A stretch of DNA of 64,000 bases. It comes from Nitriliruptorales bacterium. GTDB lineage: Bacteria > Actinomycetota > Nitriliruptoria > Euzebyales > JAHELV01. Positions 2-58,974 of the stretch are shown piece after piece. The stretch's first letter is position 1; each line of letters starts with the position of its first letter. The stretch spans positions 45,703 to 109,702 of the forward strand of contig JAHELV010000004.1 in the NCBI GenBank assembly GCA_024644015.1, in the 5' to 3' direction. The position numbers and the translations under genes were made by a program. The notes beneath the pieces were generated by a model. The model searched no databases. It saw nothing but the letters and a program-made list of their open reading frames with translations, and was not told where the DNA came from.

Positions 2-1222
2 TGTGAGGGGGAGATCGCCGGGTTCGGCGCGTCCGGGCGCAACGGCGCGTGGTGCTCGGCCGGCATCGGCATGTCCGCGTCCGGGCTCGCGCGACGCTAC
101 GACGCACACACGGCGCGAGCCGTCGTGGAGGTGATGCGCGACACCGTCGACGAGGTGGGCAGGGTGTGCGGGTCGGCCGGCATCGACGCGCACTTCCGCA
201 AAGGCGGGATGCTGCGCATCGCCCGTGGCAGGCACGAGGTGTCGGCGTTGCGGGACGCGGCCGACAGCTACCGCAGGCTCGGACTCGACAGCGGGCTGCG
301 CGAGCTGGGAGCCAGCGACGTGGCGACCCGGGTGCGTGTCGCGGGTTCGCACGGTGCGCTGTTCGACCCGAACTGCGCGACCGTCCACCCCGGTCACCTG
401 GTACGCGGGTTGGCCTCGGCCGTCGAACAACATGGCGCGCAACTGTACGAGCGCACGCCGGTCACCCGGATCGTGCCGGCGGGTCGCGGCCCAGACACCC
501 GCCCGGTCGTACACACCCGGCGCGGACGGCTGCACGCGACCACGGTCGTCATTGCCACCGAGGCATGGACGGCGCGGCTGTCGGGGCACCGCCGAACGCT
601 GCTGCCGGTCTACTCACTGATCGTGCTGACCGAGCCGCTGTCGCAGTCACAGTGGGACGCGATCGGCTGGCAGCGGCACGAGTGCCTCTCGTCGCACCGG
701 CTGACGGTCGACTATCTGTCGCGCACGGCCGACGGGCGGATCCTGCTCGGCGGTCGCGGCGCGCCGTATCACTACGGATCGCGCATCCGACCGCGCTTCG
801 ATCGCCACGGCGCCACCCACGCGCTGCTGCGCCAGATGCTGCGCTCGTGGTTCCCATCACTGTCCAACGTGGCCATCACGCACCAGTGGGGCGGACCGCT
901 GGGCGTGCCGCGCGACTGGCTGCCCAACTTCACCTATGACCCGGTGACCGGTCTCGCCGGCGCATGGGGATACACCGGGCAGGGGGTCGCCGCCAGCAAC
1001 CTGGCGGGCCGCACCCTCACCGATCTGCTCACCGGGCACGAGACGGCGTTGACGCGGCTGCCGATGGCCGGGCACCGCTCGCGGCGGTGGGAGCCCGAGC
1101 CGGTGCGCTGGCTGGGAGCCCGGTACGTCCAGCACGCGTTCGCGCGGACCGACCGCCGAGCCGAACGCACCGGCCGCCCGCCCCGTGGACGAAGCCTCGC
1201 CGAGCGGCTGATGCGGCACTGA
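2..1222 (+). CDS. FAD-dependent oxidoreductase (DAO/PuuB-like amine oxidoreductase), 5' end cut by the window edge
   Basis: The frame of ORF 71..1222 stays open back to nt 2 (CEGEIAGFGASGRNGAWCSAG...). Family-like C-terminal segments are present (HQWGGPLGVPRDW, GYTGQGVAASN). It sits next to a ureohydrolase. Confidence 0.75.
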   Translation, partial: CEGEIAGFGASGRNGAWCSAGIGMSASGLARRYDAHTARAVVEVMRDTVDEVGRVCGSAGIDAHFRKGGMLRIARGRHEVSALRDAADSYRRLGLDSGLRELGASDVATRVRVAGSHGALFDPNCATVHPGHLVRGLASAVEQHGAQLYERTPVTRIVPAGRGPDTRPVVHTRRGRLHATTVVIATEAWTARLSGHRRTLLPVYSLIVLTEPLSQSQWDAIGWQRHECLSSHRLTVDYLSRTADGRILLGGRGAPYHYGSRIRPRFDRHGATHALLRQMLRSWFPSLSNVAITHQWGGPLGVPRDWLPNFTYDPVTGLAGAWGYTGQGVAASNLAGRTLTDLLTGHETALTRLPMAGHRSRRWEPEPVRWLGARYVQHAFARTDRRAERTGRPPRGRSLAERLMRH

Positions 1223-54649: not shown

Positions 54650-55624
54650 TCAGTACCCGAGCCGATTGAGTGCGCGTGGGTCACCCTGCCAGTCCTTGAG
54701 CAGCTTGACCCGCAGCTCCAGGTAGACACGCGCGTCGAGCAACGCCTCGATGGCAGGGCGCGCGTCGGTTCCGATGTCGCGCAGCACCGCTCCACGCTTG
54801 CCGATCACGATGCCCTTCTGGGACTCGCGCTCGACGAAGATCGTCGCATGCACAACGGTCACTTCGCCGCTGCCAGGCAGCAACTCGTCGACGACGACCG
54901 CGACCGAGTGGGGGACCTCCTCTCGCATGCGGATGATCGCCTGCTCGCGGATGCGCTCGGCAATGCGCTGCTCGACCGGCTGGTCGGTCACCTGATCCGC
55001 AGGGAAGTACGGCGGCCCCTCCGGCATGCGCTCGACGATCAGCCGGCGAACGACGTCGACCCCGACACCGTCGCGTGCCGAGACCGGCACGATCTCGGCC
55101 CAGTCACCGAGCCGGGAGACCGCGTCGAGCGCCGGCAACTGGTCCGCCTTGCTCAGCCGGTCGACCTTGTTGGCCACCGCGATGGTGCGGTCCGCATGCT
55201 CGGCGAGCAGCTCGGCCACGAACTGGTCGCCCCGGCCGACGCCAGACGCTGCGTCGACCACGAACAACAGCACGTCGACGTCAGCCACGGCGTCTCGCGC
55301 GACCTCGTTGAGCCGGCTGCCGAGCAGCGTCCGCGCCTTGTGCAGGCCAGGCGTGTCGACGAACACCACCTGTACGCCTTCGTCGTGCAGCACGCCGCGC
55401 ACCGCGCGTCTCGTTGTCTGCGGCACCGGTGTCGTGATGGCCACCGGAACACCGACGAGCGCGTTGAGCAGCGTCGACTTGCCCACGTTCGGACGCCCGA
55501 CGATCGAGCAGAAGCCCGACCGCAGTCCCGTCTGCTCAGCGATCACTCGGTCGCCTGCGCCGTCGCCGCGCGGACCGCTCACGCCTGTGGGTTCCGCGGA
55601 GCCTGGTTCCGCTGCGGCGCTCAC
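54650..55624 (-). CDS. era: GTPase Era
   Basis: G1 GRPNVGKST, DTPG, NKVD, and a KH domain. The GTG at 55624 lies at the end of the tandem repeat; an alternative GTG lies at 55546. Confidence 0.9.
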   Translation of the reverse strand: MSAAAEPGSAEPTGVSGPRGDGAGDRVIAEQTGLRSGFCSIVGRPNVGKSTLLNALVGVPVAITTPVPQTTRRAVRGVLHDEGVQVVFVDTPGLHKARTLLGSRLNEVARDAVADVDVLLFVVDAASGVGRGDQFVAELLAEHADRTIAVANKVDRLSKADQLPALDAVSRLGDWAEIVPVSARDGVGVDVVRRLIVERMPEGPPYFPADQVTDQPVEQRIAERIREQAIIRMREEVPHSVAVVVDELLPGSGEVTVVHATIFVERESQKGIVIGKRGAVLRDIGTDARPAIEALLDARVYLELRVKLLKDWQGDPRALNRLGY

Positions 55625-55706
55625 GCCGGGGCCTCCGCGGAGCCTGGTTCCGCTGCGGCGCTCACGCCGGGGCCTCCGCGGAGCCTGGTTCCGCTGCGGC
55701 GCTCAC
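55578..55706 (-). repeat. 41-nt tandem repeat (two identical units, one diverged 42-nt unit, one 5-nt unit start) spanning the cdd stop to the era 5' end
   Basis: Plus-strand units CTCACGCCGGGGCCTCCGCGGAGCCTGGTTCCGCTGCGGCG at 55620..55660 and 55661..55701. A diverged copy lies at 55578..55619, and CTCAC restarts at 55702. Two 14-codon ORFs (55706..55662 and 55665..55621) both read VSAAAEPGSAEAPA. Confidence 0.9.
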
Positions 55707-56146
55707 GTGCCCTCGAGCGTGGCCGGCCCGAAGCCGTCGCGCAGCAGATCGCGTCCGAGCACGTAGCGGGTGACCGCGCCGGTATCGCCGGTTGCGAGCA
55801 CCTCCAGGTCGGGCCCGAACTCGTAGAGAAACTGCCGGCACGTCCCGCACGGAGTGCACACGGCCGGGCCGGTGCCGACCACGGCCAGCATACGAAACGA
55901 CCGTTGCCCGTGCGCCACGGCGTAGGCGCCGGCGACGCGCTCCGCGCAGATGGTCGCCGGATAGGCGGCGTTCTCAACGTTGGCGCCCGTGACGATCGTG
56001 CCGTCGTCGGTCCGCAGCGCGGCACCGACGCGGAACCGCGAGTAGGGGGCGTACGCCCGGTCGCGGGCGTCGACGGCCGCCTCGACCAGTTCGCGCTCGT
56101 CGGATGACAGGGATTGCGTCGAACCCGTCGACTGCCCGCTCGTCAT
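55703..56146 (-). CDS. cdd: Cytidine deaminase (homotetrameric type)
   Basis: 147 aa. Zinc motifs CAERVA and CTPCGTCRQFL. The start ATG overlaps the upstream stop (ATGA at 56146..56143). Confidence 0.9.
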   Translation of the reverse strand: MTSGQSTGSTQSLSSDERELVEAAVDARDRAYAPYSRFRVGAALRTDDGTIVTGANVENAAYPATICAERVAGAYAVAHGQRSFRMLAVVGTGPAVCTPCGTCRQFLYEFGPDLEVLATGDTGAVTRYVLGRDLLRDGFGPATLEGT

Positions 56147-57402
56147 TCGTCATCCTCGTCGGCGCGACGCTCGACGAGCACCTGCCAGATGCGCCGACCT
56201 CGGACCTGCTCGGCCGTCAGCTGGATCCCGTCGACCGCGACGCGCTCGCCCGGCGTCGCGATGTGACCCAGCATGCCGAACAACAGGCCACCGACGGTGT
56301 CCCACTGGTCGTCGGGCAGCCGGGTATCGACGAGCTCGGCCAGGTCACCGACCGGCAGTCGGGCGTCGACCCGCCACCGCTCGCCGTCGAGGACCTCGAC
56401 GAGCGGCAGCTCCTCGTCGTACTCGTCGACGATCTCGCCCACCAGCTCCTCGAGGATGTCTTCGATCGTGACGAGACCGACCGTGGCACCGTACTCATCG
56501 ACGACCACGGCCATGTGGACCTGCTGGGCCTGCAGCTCGCGAAGCAGCTCCTCGACATTCTTGAGCTCCGGTACGACCAGCGCCGCTCGCATCAGGTCGG
56601 TCCACTGCTTGATCTCGCCGGTGTGCAGCAGCGCCAAGATGTCCTTGGCGTAGATGATCCCCTCGATCTCGTCGCGATCGTCTCCGTGCACGGGAATGCG
56701 GGAGTGGCCGGCGCGAAGGATCACGTCGACGACCTCGTCCAGCGGCGCGTCGGCGGCGACGGCGACCATGTCGGGACGCGGCACCATCACCTCGCGTACG
56801 ACGGTGTCGCCAAGATCGAACACCGCACTCAGCATGGCATGCCGCGATGCCGACAGCGTGCCTTCGGAGCCGGCGACGTCCACCAGGTCGCGCAGGTAGT
56901 CAGTCGTCACGACGAGCACCGGCTCGTCAGAGTCCCCGGGGGTGACCGTGCTCCCCAGACGGCCGATCAGGCGGGCGAACGGACCGAACACGACAACCGG
57001 CAGGCGGACGACGCGCGCGAGCCGGACGGCCACGCGCTCGGGACGGGCGCCCACGACACCGGCGGGCACGACATCGGCGGCCAGATACAACGTCAGCACC
57101 GCCAGGAGGGCGCCGAGGGTCAGTCCGGCCACTCCGCCGATCAGGTCGAGACCTACCGCGGCGAGCACGACAACGTATGCGCCCCGCAGCATGGTCGTCA
57201 GCAGTGACAGCACCGCGAGCGTCTGCGGTAGCGCGCTGACCAGTTGCAGCAACGTATCGGCGCCCGGCATGTCGTCGGCGTCCAGCTTCTCTGCGCGGGG
57301 GGCACTGATCCGCGCCACCGCCGTCTTCGCCGTCTCGAATACGCCGGTGAAGATGAGCAGCAAGGCCGCGAACGCCAGGACGAGCCACAACTGGGTGGTC
57401 AT
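56143..57402 (-). CDS. DUF21-CBS pair-CorC/HlyC domain membrane protein (TlyC/CorC family)
   Basis: N-terminal 4-TM DUF21, tandem CBS domains (VMVPRPDMV..., HSRIPV), and a C-terminal CorC_HlyC domain. Confidence 0.9.
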   Translation of the reverse strand: MTTQLWLVLAFAALLLIFTGVFETAKTAVARISAPRAEKLDADDMPGADTLLQLVSALPQTLAVLSLLTTMLRGAYVVVLAAVGLDLIGGVAGLTLGALLAVLTLYLAADVVPAGVVGARPERVAVRLARVVRLPVVVFGPFARLIGRLGSTVTPGDSDEPVLVVTTDYLRDLVDVAGSEGTLSASRHAMLSAVFDLGDTVVREVMVPRPDMVAVAADAPLDEVVDVILRAGHSRIPVHGDDRDEIEGIIYAKDILALLHTGEIKQWTDLMRAALVVPELKNVEELLRELQAQQVHMAVVVDEYGATVGLVTIEDILEELVGEIVDEYDEELPLVEVLDGERWRVDARLPVGDLAELVDTRLPDDQWDTVGGLLFGMLGHIATPGERVAVDGIQLTAEQVRGRRIWQVLVERRADEDDE

Positions 57403-57848
57403 CGCGCTCGACCGCCTGCGGCGGTGAACTCGGCGAGAAGCGCAGCAGTCAGCCCGAACATCCGTGTGCGCTCAGCATCGGCGACGTGATCGTGGCCGAG
57501 CAGATGCAGGATGCCGTGAACGACCAGCAGGTCGATCTCGGCCGTTGGCGTGCAGCCGCGCCCGGCCGCCTGGTCGATCGCGACCCGTGGACACACGACG
57601 ACGTCGCCGAGCAGTCCGGGCACCCCCTCAGTTGCCTCGTCGACGCCGTCGATGGGGAACGCCAGCACGTCCGTGGGACCTGTGCCCGCCAGATGGTGTT
57701 CGTTGAGATCGCGGATTCGCGCCACGTCCACGCACGTGATCGCCAGCTCGAGCTCGGGTGGCACGTCGAGGCGCGCCAGAACGTACCGCCCGAGTCGCTC
57801 GAGCCGATCCTGGTCGACAGGGTCGGTCTGCTCGTCGATGACGCGCAC
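57399..57848 (-). CDS. ybeY: Endoribonuclease YbeY (rRNA maturation factor)
   Basis: TDVLAFP and the HGILHLLGHDH zinc motif. GTG at 57848 (VVRVIDEQ...) was chosen because it aligns with the usual family N-terminus. Upstream in-frame codons were rejected. Confidence 0.85.
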   Translation of the reverse strand: MRVIDEQTDPVDQDRLERLGRYVLARLDVPPELELAITCVDVARIRDLNEHHLAGTGPTDVLAFPIDGVDEATEGVPGLLGDVVVCPRVAIDQAAGRGCTPTAEIDLLVVHGILHLLGHDHVADAERTRMFGLTAALLAEFTAAGGRAR

Positions 57849-57948
57849 GACATGATCCGCGGGGCGCGGGGAGCCAGACGCGCGCGCCGTGGTCGGATCC
57901 TGGACAGCCGCCCCGGTCGCGGGCGGTTGCCCGCGACGTCGGGACGGC

Positions 57949-58974
57949 TCAGGACTGCCGGATACCACCCTCAGTCCCTTCCACCTGGTCGTACCGCTCG
58001 TAGGCTTCGACGATCTGTTGGACGATCCGATGCCGCACCACATCGCGGCCGGTCAGCTCGGCGAACGCCACGCCCTCGATATCGGCAAGCACGTCGCGGA
58101 CCACTCGCAGACCCGACCGTCGGCCGGACGGCAGATCCACCTGCGTGACGTCACCGGTCACGACGGCCCGCGACCCGAAGCCAAGGCGGGTGAGGAACAT
58201 CTTCATCTGCTCGGCCGTGGTGTTCTGGGCCTCGTCGAGCACGATGAAACTGTCGTTGAGCGTGCGTCCACGCATGTACGCCAGCGGCGCTACCTCGATC
58301 GTGCCGCGCTCCATGAGCAGTGTCAGCTGCTCGGCGTCCATCATGTCGTGCAGCGCGTCGAAGAGCGGGCGCAGGTACGGGTCGATCTTCTCGTACAGCG
58401 TGCCGGGCAGGAAGCCGAGGCGCTCGCCGGCCTCGACCGCGGGCCGCGTCAACAGGATCCTGTTGACTTCCTTACGGCGCAGCGCTTCTACGGCCATCGC
58501 CATGGCCAGGTACGTCTTACCGGTACCGGCGGGCCCGATCGAGAACACGACCGTGCTCGATCGCATCGCGTCCAGGTACGCCTTCTGCCCCGGGGTCTTC
58601 GGCCTGATCAGCCGGCCGCGGTGCCGCAACGCGGTGTCGCCAAGCACGTCAGCGGGGCTGACGCCTTCGTCGTCGCGCACCATCTCGATCGTTCCGTGCA
58701 CCAGTGATTCGTCGAGCTCGTAGCCGCGTTCGAGCAGCTTGACGAACTCGTCGAACACCCGCAGGACCTGCTGCGCCTCACCGTCGTGACCCGAGATGGT
58801 GACCTCGTTGCCCCGCACGAGGATCTCGACGGAGAACGCCCGCTCGACGATCCGCAACAGCGCGTCACCCGTTCCCAGCAGTGACAGCATCGAGTGCTCG
58901 ACGGGGATGGAGATCTTGACGCTGGTGGTACCTGGCAACGAGGGCTCTTGTCGGTTGGGCGGTCCTTGGTTCAA
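57949..58974 (-). CDS. phoH: PhoH-like ATPase
   Basis: GPAGTGKTYLAMAMAVEAL Walker A, IVLDEAQN Walker B, and an N-terminal KH-like region. The start is uncertain; the TTG at 58974 was taken to give ~341 aa. Confidence 0.8.
   Translation of the reverse strand: MNQGPPNRQEPSLPGTTSVKISIPVEHSMLSLLGTGDALLRIVERAFSVEILVRGNEVTISGHDGEAQQVLRVFDEFVKLLERGYELDESLVHGTIEMVRDDEGVSPADVLGDTALRHRGRLIRPKTPGQKAYLDAMRSSTVVFSIGPAGTGKTYLAMAMAVEALRRKEVNRILLTRPAVEAGERLGFLPGTLYEKIDPYLRPLFDALHDMMDAEQLTLLMERGTIEVAPLAYMRGRTLNDSFIVLDEAQNTTAEQMKMFLTRLGFGSRAVVTGDVTQVDLPSGRRSGLRVVRDVLADIEGVAFAELTGRDVVRHRIVQQIVEAYERYDQVEGTEGGIRQS

Follow-up and report, generated by a model that had tools for sequence, protein, structure and literature searches.

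A tandem array between cdd and era in a Nitriliruptorales bacterium is probably one locus of a dispersed repeat family with the architecture of mycobacterial interspersed repetitive units

What is a tandem array of very small open reading frames (ORFs) doing between cdd and era, and did it arise there or does it belong to a wider family? The array lies on the minus strand of a 64,000-nt stretch of a Nitriliruptorales genome (contig JAHELV010000004.1, assembly GCA_024644015.1), which was analysed as a whole and is called the window below. With a probability of about three in four, it is one locus of a dispersed family of 38–42-nt repeats of Euzebyales-like Actinomycetota, a family that has the architecture of mycobacterial interspersed repetitive units (MIRUs) and an unrelated sequence. 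The repeats would then form a new MIRU-type family, previously undescribed, and would not themselves be MIRUs.

The cdd coding region ends with GGC ACG TGA, and its stop (55705..55703) is situated within a GTGA at 55706..55703. Three repeat units follow in a 124-nt array (Table 1). Units 1 and 2 are both the 41-mer GTGAGCGCCGCAGCGGAACCAGGCTCCGCGGAGGCCCCGGC. Unit 3 has the same first 32 nt, but its 3′ end has diverged to GGAACCCACAGGC, the GGAGG is lost and the unit is fused in frame with era. A fourth GTGAGCG begins at 55582, after unit 3, and GTGA is present at both sides of the array. Each 41-nt unit consists of a 14-codon ORF, with start and stop each inside a GTGA. The 23-nt family core GCAGCGGAACCAGGCTCCGCGGA carries a 10-bp palindrome, CTCCGCGGAG, found at 55683..55674 in unit 1. 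Tandem Repeats Finder reports a period of 41, 3.2 copies and 95% matches at 55576..55707 (score 234), by far the strongest tandem repeat of the window. The exact 41-mer is found twice in the window and the core three times, with 0 expected from 100 shuffles; the array is confirmed as real and non-random. A preliminary description had proposed a GTGA-linked relay of 14-codon mini-ORFs at this site. Reading of the minus strand together with the ORF listing bears out its coordinates and frames, and the sequence likewise agrees with the identical 41-mers, the diverged 42-nt third copy in era and the GGAGG 7 nt before GTG that it had listed.

Copies of the repeat are also found elsewhere. An exact-match scan with the core across one genome per species gave five stretches in two other metagenome-assembled genomes (MAGs), none at cdd/era, and a metagenome scan with CAGCGGAACCNGGCTCCGCGGA matched 14 contigs. 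When duplicates are merged (L010 with L017, L016 with L021, L005 with L007), 16 further loci are obtained, or 17 with the window. The 16 are non-homologous and show different neighbours by Pfam and ORF tables. Two named neighbours are present at uvrC/rapZ, tsaD/GNAT, rsmD/coaD, sufD/Rieske, iolB/iolD, tRNA_bind/folB and nusG/rplK. Three loci have a named gene on the upstream side only (GT4, NYN and dksA-type); at three others the upstream sequence is non-coding, and the repeat precedes ligD, birA or a gene without a name. The remaining copies are found upstream of a PaaA-like gene, inside anmK and at one contig end. All evaluable loci (16/16) show the repeat in sense orientation relative to the flanking genes (codon-position GC phasing; binomial p = 1.5e-5). 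Thus, between the dispersed family and the local duplication that the preliminary description had considered, the core scans decide for dispersal.

The carriers are Euzebyales-like MAGs and soil metagenomes, and the closest homologues of Era, SufD and FolB come from MAGs named Euzebyales, Egibacteraceae or Nitriliruptorales. A profile built from 28 units and searched with nhmmer finds no copies in the window beyond the three units. Other host junctions of the family (uvrC-rapZ and others) were sought in the window as reciprocal empty sites and none is present there. A scan of viral contigs gave 0 matches, and a phage-borne element was rejected on this ground.

One copy with an unusual setting is that of L019 (6090..6134), a single core without RTGA boundaries (R = A or G) in the nusG-rplK spacer. 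It is in sense orientation and precedes the rplK ATG by 24 nt, in a region where one would look for an L11 leader.

A typical 41-nt unit reads A or G followed by TGAGCGCC, the core and GGCCCTGNC, with the next RTGA directly after. Its parts are an RTGA, approximately 5 nt, the 23-nt core, and GGAGG plus 7 nt; the GGAGG motif and its spacing recur in units at other loci. In a relay simulation, reading frames were followed across each junction, beginning at the upstream stop. An unbroken chain of −4 overlaps at RTGA connects this stop with the start of the next gene in the window and in L003, L004, L006, L009, L011 and L018, the last with an extra 6-codon linker ORF. In L007, L012 and L020 the chain is unbroken from the first RTGA onward. 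In L012, L015 and L020 no gene lies upstream, and the array occupies the 5′ end of a gene. Lengths of 41 and 38 nt (3n−1) are found among relay units, and L004 combines 39 and 38 for a total of 77. Because a relay unit is 3n−1 nt long, the 14-codon ORF opened by one GTG is closed by the TGA within the following GTGA. Arrays hold from one to three or more units across loci, and those of one, two and three units all form unbroken −4 chains, as is expected if the 3n−1 length keeps stop/start overlaps at any copy number, which the preliminary description had predicted.

The core itself is read in all three frames at different loci, giving AAEPGSAE, QRNQAPR or SGTRLRG, so that it is the nucleotide layout that is conserved and not a peptide. 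Units fused to proteins lack a stop; they measure 39 nt in L008 and at the C-terminus of SufD, which has two of them, and 42 nt in unit 3 of the window. In-frame protein copies are found at the N-terminus (Era and the PaaA-like protein of L013), at the C-terminus (SufD, IolB and RsmD) and internally (AnmK).

At tRNA_bind/folB, contig L028 (FolB 75% identical to that of L018) displays no canonical unit but a 47-nt GTGA...ATGA spacer at 555..605, with a 16-codon relay ORF and GGGAGGA. In L026 (554..603) the spacer differs from that of L028 by one G in a G-run and the frame is broken. The spacer of L028 and L026 may be an old, diverged member of the family.

Copy number varies between close relatives at two loci. 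At tRNA_bind/folB, with FolB 98–100% identical, one 41-nt unit is found in L025 versus two in L029–L032 and L035; three more folB contigs start inside the array. Within one 90% cluster of SufD sequences, two units (P0241, the protein of L014) are found versus one (P0121 and P0243), and P0242 has a diverged copy. When aligned, the sufD DNA sequences differ by a clean indel of 39 nt, and the GTGA that joins sufD to the Rieske gene is retained. Flanks are unchanged save for one substitution at sufD and a 1-nt deletion at folB (L030). The folB alignment has variable columns at 12/82 positions in the units versus 0/70 in the flanks. ATGA and GGAGG contain no variable column (p = 0.04), and the 41-nt period is retained even where the palindrome CTCCGCGGAG is destroyed. 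The differences between these conspecific assemblies amount to exactly one unit with the junctions intact, as the preliminary description had supposed in suggesting that copy number could change without uncoupling the neighbouring genes.

The 1-nt deletion of L030 (ERZ27256841, approximately 405..420) lies in the 6-codon linker ORF and shifts the intermediate frames. The distance from GTGA to the final ATGA is 98 nt (3n−1), and one long ORF still ends in a TGA that overlaps the folB start.

More distant SufD orthologues show degenerate tails, e.g. GAGEPGDAEAQK. Old copies therefore decay, and a search with the exact core finds young copies only. Orthologues P0134, P0141, P0142 and P0144–P0146, 70–75% identical to the L014 protein, carry either one canonical AEPGSAE or a degenerate form (GAGEPGAAEAQK, AEPSSAKART). 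This pattern suggests an old insertion at the 3′ end of sufD, decayed or renewed in different lineages.

What did the cdd/era junction look like without the repeat? An exact Era match is found in only one NCBI contig (121.6 kb) and the next relative is 88% identical, so there is no conspecific sequence to compare at this junction. In L002 (MAG GCA_019347695; era DNA 82.6% identical), cdd and era are joined by a bare ATGA overlap with no repeat. The MAG with this empty junction carries the 23-nt core at other loci. The L002 Era N-terminus, MTADRGADGVLDTGARLRSG, resembles the window sequence after GTG 55582, VSGPRGDGAGDRVIAEQTGLRSG. On this likeness the simplest history would start from a GTGA overlap at 55582; the 124 nt of repeat would then have been inserted there and the GTGA duplicated. 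Of 120 Era homologues retrieved, the closest 60 were inspected, and the peptide AEPGSAE is absent from all of them.

The longest era ORF opens at GTG 55624 and gives the N-terminus VSAAAEPGSAE. In-frame start candidates are GTG 55624, 55582 (GTGAGCGG...) and 55546, and the best Shine-Dalgarno (SD) sequence is that of GTG 55624. GTG 55582 is the probable start of era before the insertion, i.e. the ancestral one, as judged from the sequence of the relative. Within the clade, Era has an unconserved N-terminal extension of 0–36 residues before the conserved RSGF...GRPNVGKS. Clade N-termini very often begin with V or M followed by S or T, which is expected of starts embedded in RTGA overlaps.

A different arrangement is found at cdd/era in the closest relative, L001 (GCA_965612135, 2934..3008). 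It has a 71-nt spacer (3n−1) bounded by GTGA...GTGA, with a 24-codon ORF that starts in the cdd stop and a GAGGAGG 5 nt before a TTG start of era. The stop of the 24-codon ORF overlaps era by 8 nt (TTGAGTGA). The first 16 nt of the spacer resemble the start of a unit (GTGAGCGCGTCAGCGG). No second copy of the 71-nt spacer was found in the sequence data searched. The spacer could be a decayed copy or another subfamily.

The preliminary description had likened the array to MIRUs. In M. tuberculosis these are units of 40–100 bp, present 40–50 times per genome inside operons; the ends of the MIRU ORF overlap neighbouring genes and filled sites carry tetranucleotide direct repeats (PMC3184786). They insert at start codons, and the internal ORF is coupled at −4 (PMC12548453, PMC3184786). 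MIRUs of 77 and 53 bp are reported, and those of senX3-regX3 have reported promoter activity (PMC4213456). The MIRU features of Supply et al. (1997) are taken here from the summaries in PMC12548453 and PMC3184786. The published unit MIRU292 has 53 nt (3n−1) and when rotated reads ATGAC...GGAGGAG, 8 nt and ATGA.

The family described here shares much of this design. The unit is short (38–42 nt, at the lower edge of the published 40–100 bp), is dispersed over non-homologous loci, occurs as direct tandem copies, and is situated between co-oriented genes, whose direction it shares. It contains a small ORF coupled at both ends by −4 overlaps (RTGA), with the stop before it and with the start after it, and an internal SD-like motif 7–8 nt before the next start. 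Lengths are 3n−1 in both cases (41 and 38 nt here, 53 and 77 in MIRUs), a rule that we infer from the lengths. A tetranucleotide is found on both sides of filled sites, with the empty site in the relative L002, and tandem copy number varies between close strains, here at folB and sufD.

Differences are seen as well. The host belongs to Nitriliruptoria, order Euzebyales, and not to Mycobacterium. The units are shorter, 3n variants of 39 or 42 nt without a stop are fused to proteins, and copies per genome may be far below the 40–50 of M. tuberculosis. No significant similarity to MIRU292, the one MIRU sequence compared, was found on either strand (local score 17 versus 14.5 ± 3.0 for shuffles; p approximately 0.2–0.4), and homology to MIRUs is not supported because the alignment is no better than that of shuffles. 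Thus the MIRU likeness stands for the published architecture and the MIRU292 layout, but does not extend to sequence homology with MIRU292. A literature search found no relevant description of MIRU-like elements outside mycobacteria; one match to 'miru-like' was set aside as it refers to a Trichodesmium species.

Other known systems resemble the family in part. The bicistronic-design or leader-ORF cassettes used in synthetic biology for translational coupling (PMC12548453) also have a short ORF, an internal SD and a stop overlapping the gene start, by which ribosomes are brought to the gene of interest, and the arrays of L012, L015 and L020 are placed like a leader cassette; the repeat family differs in being natural, repeated, mobile or amplifiable, and tandem-stacked. 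REP/BIME sequences and MITEs are likewise small, GC-rich, dispersed, sometimes tandem and found in operons. REP sequences and MITEs are defined by dyad symmetry, however, and do not consist of ORFs that overlap at their stops and starts, whereas the repeat family has no stable hairpin or terminal inverted repeats. Rickettsia palindromic elements (RPEs; PMC3184786) share the property that some copies are read within host proteins, but RPEs are palindromic, 105–146 bp long and typically inside ORFs, while the repeat family is typically found at a stop/start junction and its in-frame copies are a minority.

An RPE-like behaviour of the family is seen in anmK (anhydro-MurNAc kinase), where approximately 1.5 units are present in frame inside the gene (L010, 2716..2781; L017, 533..468). 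The copy splits the Pfam match into two stretches and is identical in two different metagenomes.

How might the array have formed, and how could era be translated behind it? Ancestrally, era would have started at 55582 and overlapped cdd by a simple GTGA. A unit would have entered at the start codon, duplicating the GTGA, and slippage or unequal recombination may then have amplified it to three copies. A ribosome finishing cdd could restart on mini-ORF 1, then on mini-ORF 2 and then on era, aided by the internal GGAGG; each UGA termination would be followed by a restart at the overlapping GUG or AUG, keeping era coupled to cdd. The 3n−1 layout would let the element persist and change in copy number with little polar effect on era, as a stealth passenger of translationally coupled junctions, and a layout that preserves coupling may account for the survival of insertions. 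Unit 3, now 42 nt long, would have acquired an additional base and lost the GGAGG, so that it would today be read as an extension at the Era N-terminus. The insertion mechanism, the termination-reinitiation and the era start used are what we infer from the arrangement of the sequence.

Several points weigh against this account of a coupled, dispersed family. A single locus is present in the 64-kb window, and only two loci per genome in the other MAGs (exact core, MAG fragments), so the family may be low-copy or else under-represented in assemblies. The copies of L008 and L019 lack RTGA boundaries and that of L010/L017 lies inside anmK; the coupling layout is therefore common and not obligatory. 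With a search for the exact core, core conservation is partly a selection effect. The absence of variable folB columns in ATGA and GGAGG is weakly significant (p = 0.04), and copy number at cdd/era is that of a MAG assembly only. The ribosome relay, the use of GTG 55624 and an effect on Era levels would follow from the DNA sequence by interpretation.

The main rival explanation, although unlikely, places the function in the core, as a site to which a dimeric protein would bind (CTCCGCGGAG), as an internal promoter or other regulatory element, or as an RNA hairpin, with the mini-ORFs a tolerated by-product. The core is identical across genomes in which era is only ~83% identical, a perfect palindrome of 10 bp and also a 5-bp stem are found in it, some copies have no RTGA boundaries (the nusG-rplK spacer of L019, and L008), and there is the promoter activity of the senX3-regX3 MIRUs. 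Structure predictions do not agree with this explanation. RNA folding is no better than that of dinucleotide shuffles (z = +0.87 for the array, −0.7 to +1.2 for single units) and Rfam gives only chance-level matches (E > 1), outside the repeat; a structured RNA or REP-like element was rejected on these two results. A consensus scan found no promoter or terminator, although this is weak evidence as the scan was sigma-70-centred. The unit has no terminal inverted repeats, and the only dyads of the core, the 5-bp stem and the palindrome, are both mutated in conspecific copies. In the conspecific folB arrays mutations are freely found in the core and its palindrome, but not in ATGA or GGAGG, and the 41-nt period is constant. 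Strict sense orientation and a frame rule are not expected of a symmetric DNA site, and core identity is in part an artefact of the exact-core search.

That a metagenome assembler collapsed or expanded the repeat is very unlikely. The window does come from a MAG, and several contigs elsewhere end inside arrays, which shows that assemblers struggle with them. The 124-nt array is shorter than a typical read, however, and the diverged unit 3 anchors it in unique sequence. Arrays of the same design are also found inside contigs from NCBI, JGI, ENA and Logan, with identical or nearly identical flanks.

In seven contigs, which come from different assemblers, one end lies inside an array (L005 1..76, L007 173..231, L008 1..61, L009 1..72, and the starts of L033, L034 and L036), so the repeat family is a recurrent cause of contig breaks. 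L005 and L007 belong to the same MAG and look like two sides of one rsmD/coaD array. Copy numbers in the family are probably underestimated.

Still less credible is a functional peptide module (AAEPGSAE), such as a flexible linker or a signal on Era and other proteins. Some copies are indeed in frame as N- or C-terminal tails or as internal segments, but the three frames in use yield unrelated peptides, most copies are separate ORFs of 13–26 codons, and the tails come and go between near-identical proteins. The weakest explanation, replication slippage that duplicated the cdd/era junction in tandem and gave a 3n−1 length by accident, would fit a unit unique within the window and an Era N-terminal extension whose variability and lack of conservation in relatives imply that duplications are tolerated, but a purely local origin is rejected by the core scans, which place the core, usually with its RTGA and GGAGG frame, at 16 non-homologous loci in independent assemblies whose different Pfam-verified flanks exclude chimeric contamination from one locus.

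The features of the locus are collected in Table 1. Upstream of cdd, ATGA overlaps of −4 join ybeY to the corC-like gene (57399..57402) and the corC-like gene to cdd (56143..56146), so that the array sits within a chain of −4-coupled genes. The ybeY-corC-cdd-era block forms a continuous chain of stop/start overlaps.

Table 1. Positions of the repeat units, small ORFs, motifs and neighbouring genes in the window.
Feature	Position	Strand	Description	Basis
Repeat unit 1	55666..55706	−	41 nt, starts GTGA	Sequence, Tandem Repeats Finder, ORF listing
Repeat unit 2	55625..55665	−	41 nt, identical to unit 1	Sequence, ORF listing
Repeat unit 3	55583..55624	−	42 nt (3n), codons 1–14 of the longest era ORF
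Mini-ORF 1	55706..55662	−	14 codons, VSAAAEPGSAEAPA-stop	ORF listing
Mini-ORF 2	55665..55621	−	14 codons, VSAAAEPGSAEAPA-stop	ORF listing
GGAGG of unit 1	55673..55677	−	SD-like	7 nt before GTG 55665
GGAGG of unit 2	55632..55636	−	SD-like	7 nt before GTG 55624
Family core	55675..55697, 55634..55656, 55593..55615	−	23 nt, GCAGCGGAACCAGGCTCCGCGGA	Exact matches
era	54650..55624	−	Longest ORF, 324 codons	ORF; Pfam MMR_HSR1 and KH_2
cdd	55703..56146	−	Cytidine deaminase	ORF; Pfam dCMP_cyt_deam_1, E = 8.8e-19
corC-like	56143..57402	−	CNNM/CBS gene	ORF, Pfam
ybeY	57399..58043	−		ORF, Pfam

MIRUs have served as typing markers for 25 years, and to our knowledge their mode of spread and their position at start codons are still unexplained. 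A family of unrelated sequence with the same design in a distant class would mean that the design (RTGA, 3n−1 length, internal SD and sense orientation) is selected and not the sequence, and would make questions of MIRU spread and function testable by comparison. The junctions offer a natural series of 0, 1, 2 and 3 units for the study of termination-reinitiation relays. For annotation, gene starts beside arrays are ambiguous, as with Era here, element-derived tails are fused to proteins, and contigs break; the arrays are also potential variable-number tandem repeat markers for uncultured Euzebyales populations. We raise tentatively, as a possibility somewhat short of even odds, that the repeats make up a second family of mobile coupling cassettes, of independent evolutionary origin, which would actively target start codons or −4 overlaps and survive by rebuilding the coupling. 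If so, MIRU-type elements would be a general class in Actinomycetota and not a mycobacterial curiosity, and their design would be convergent.

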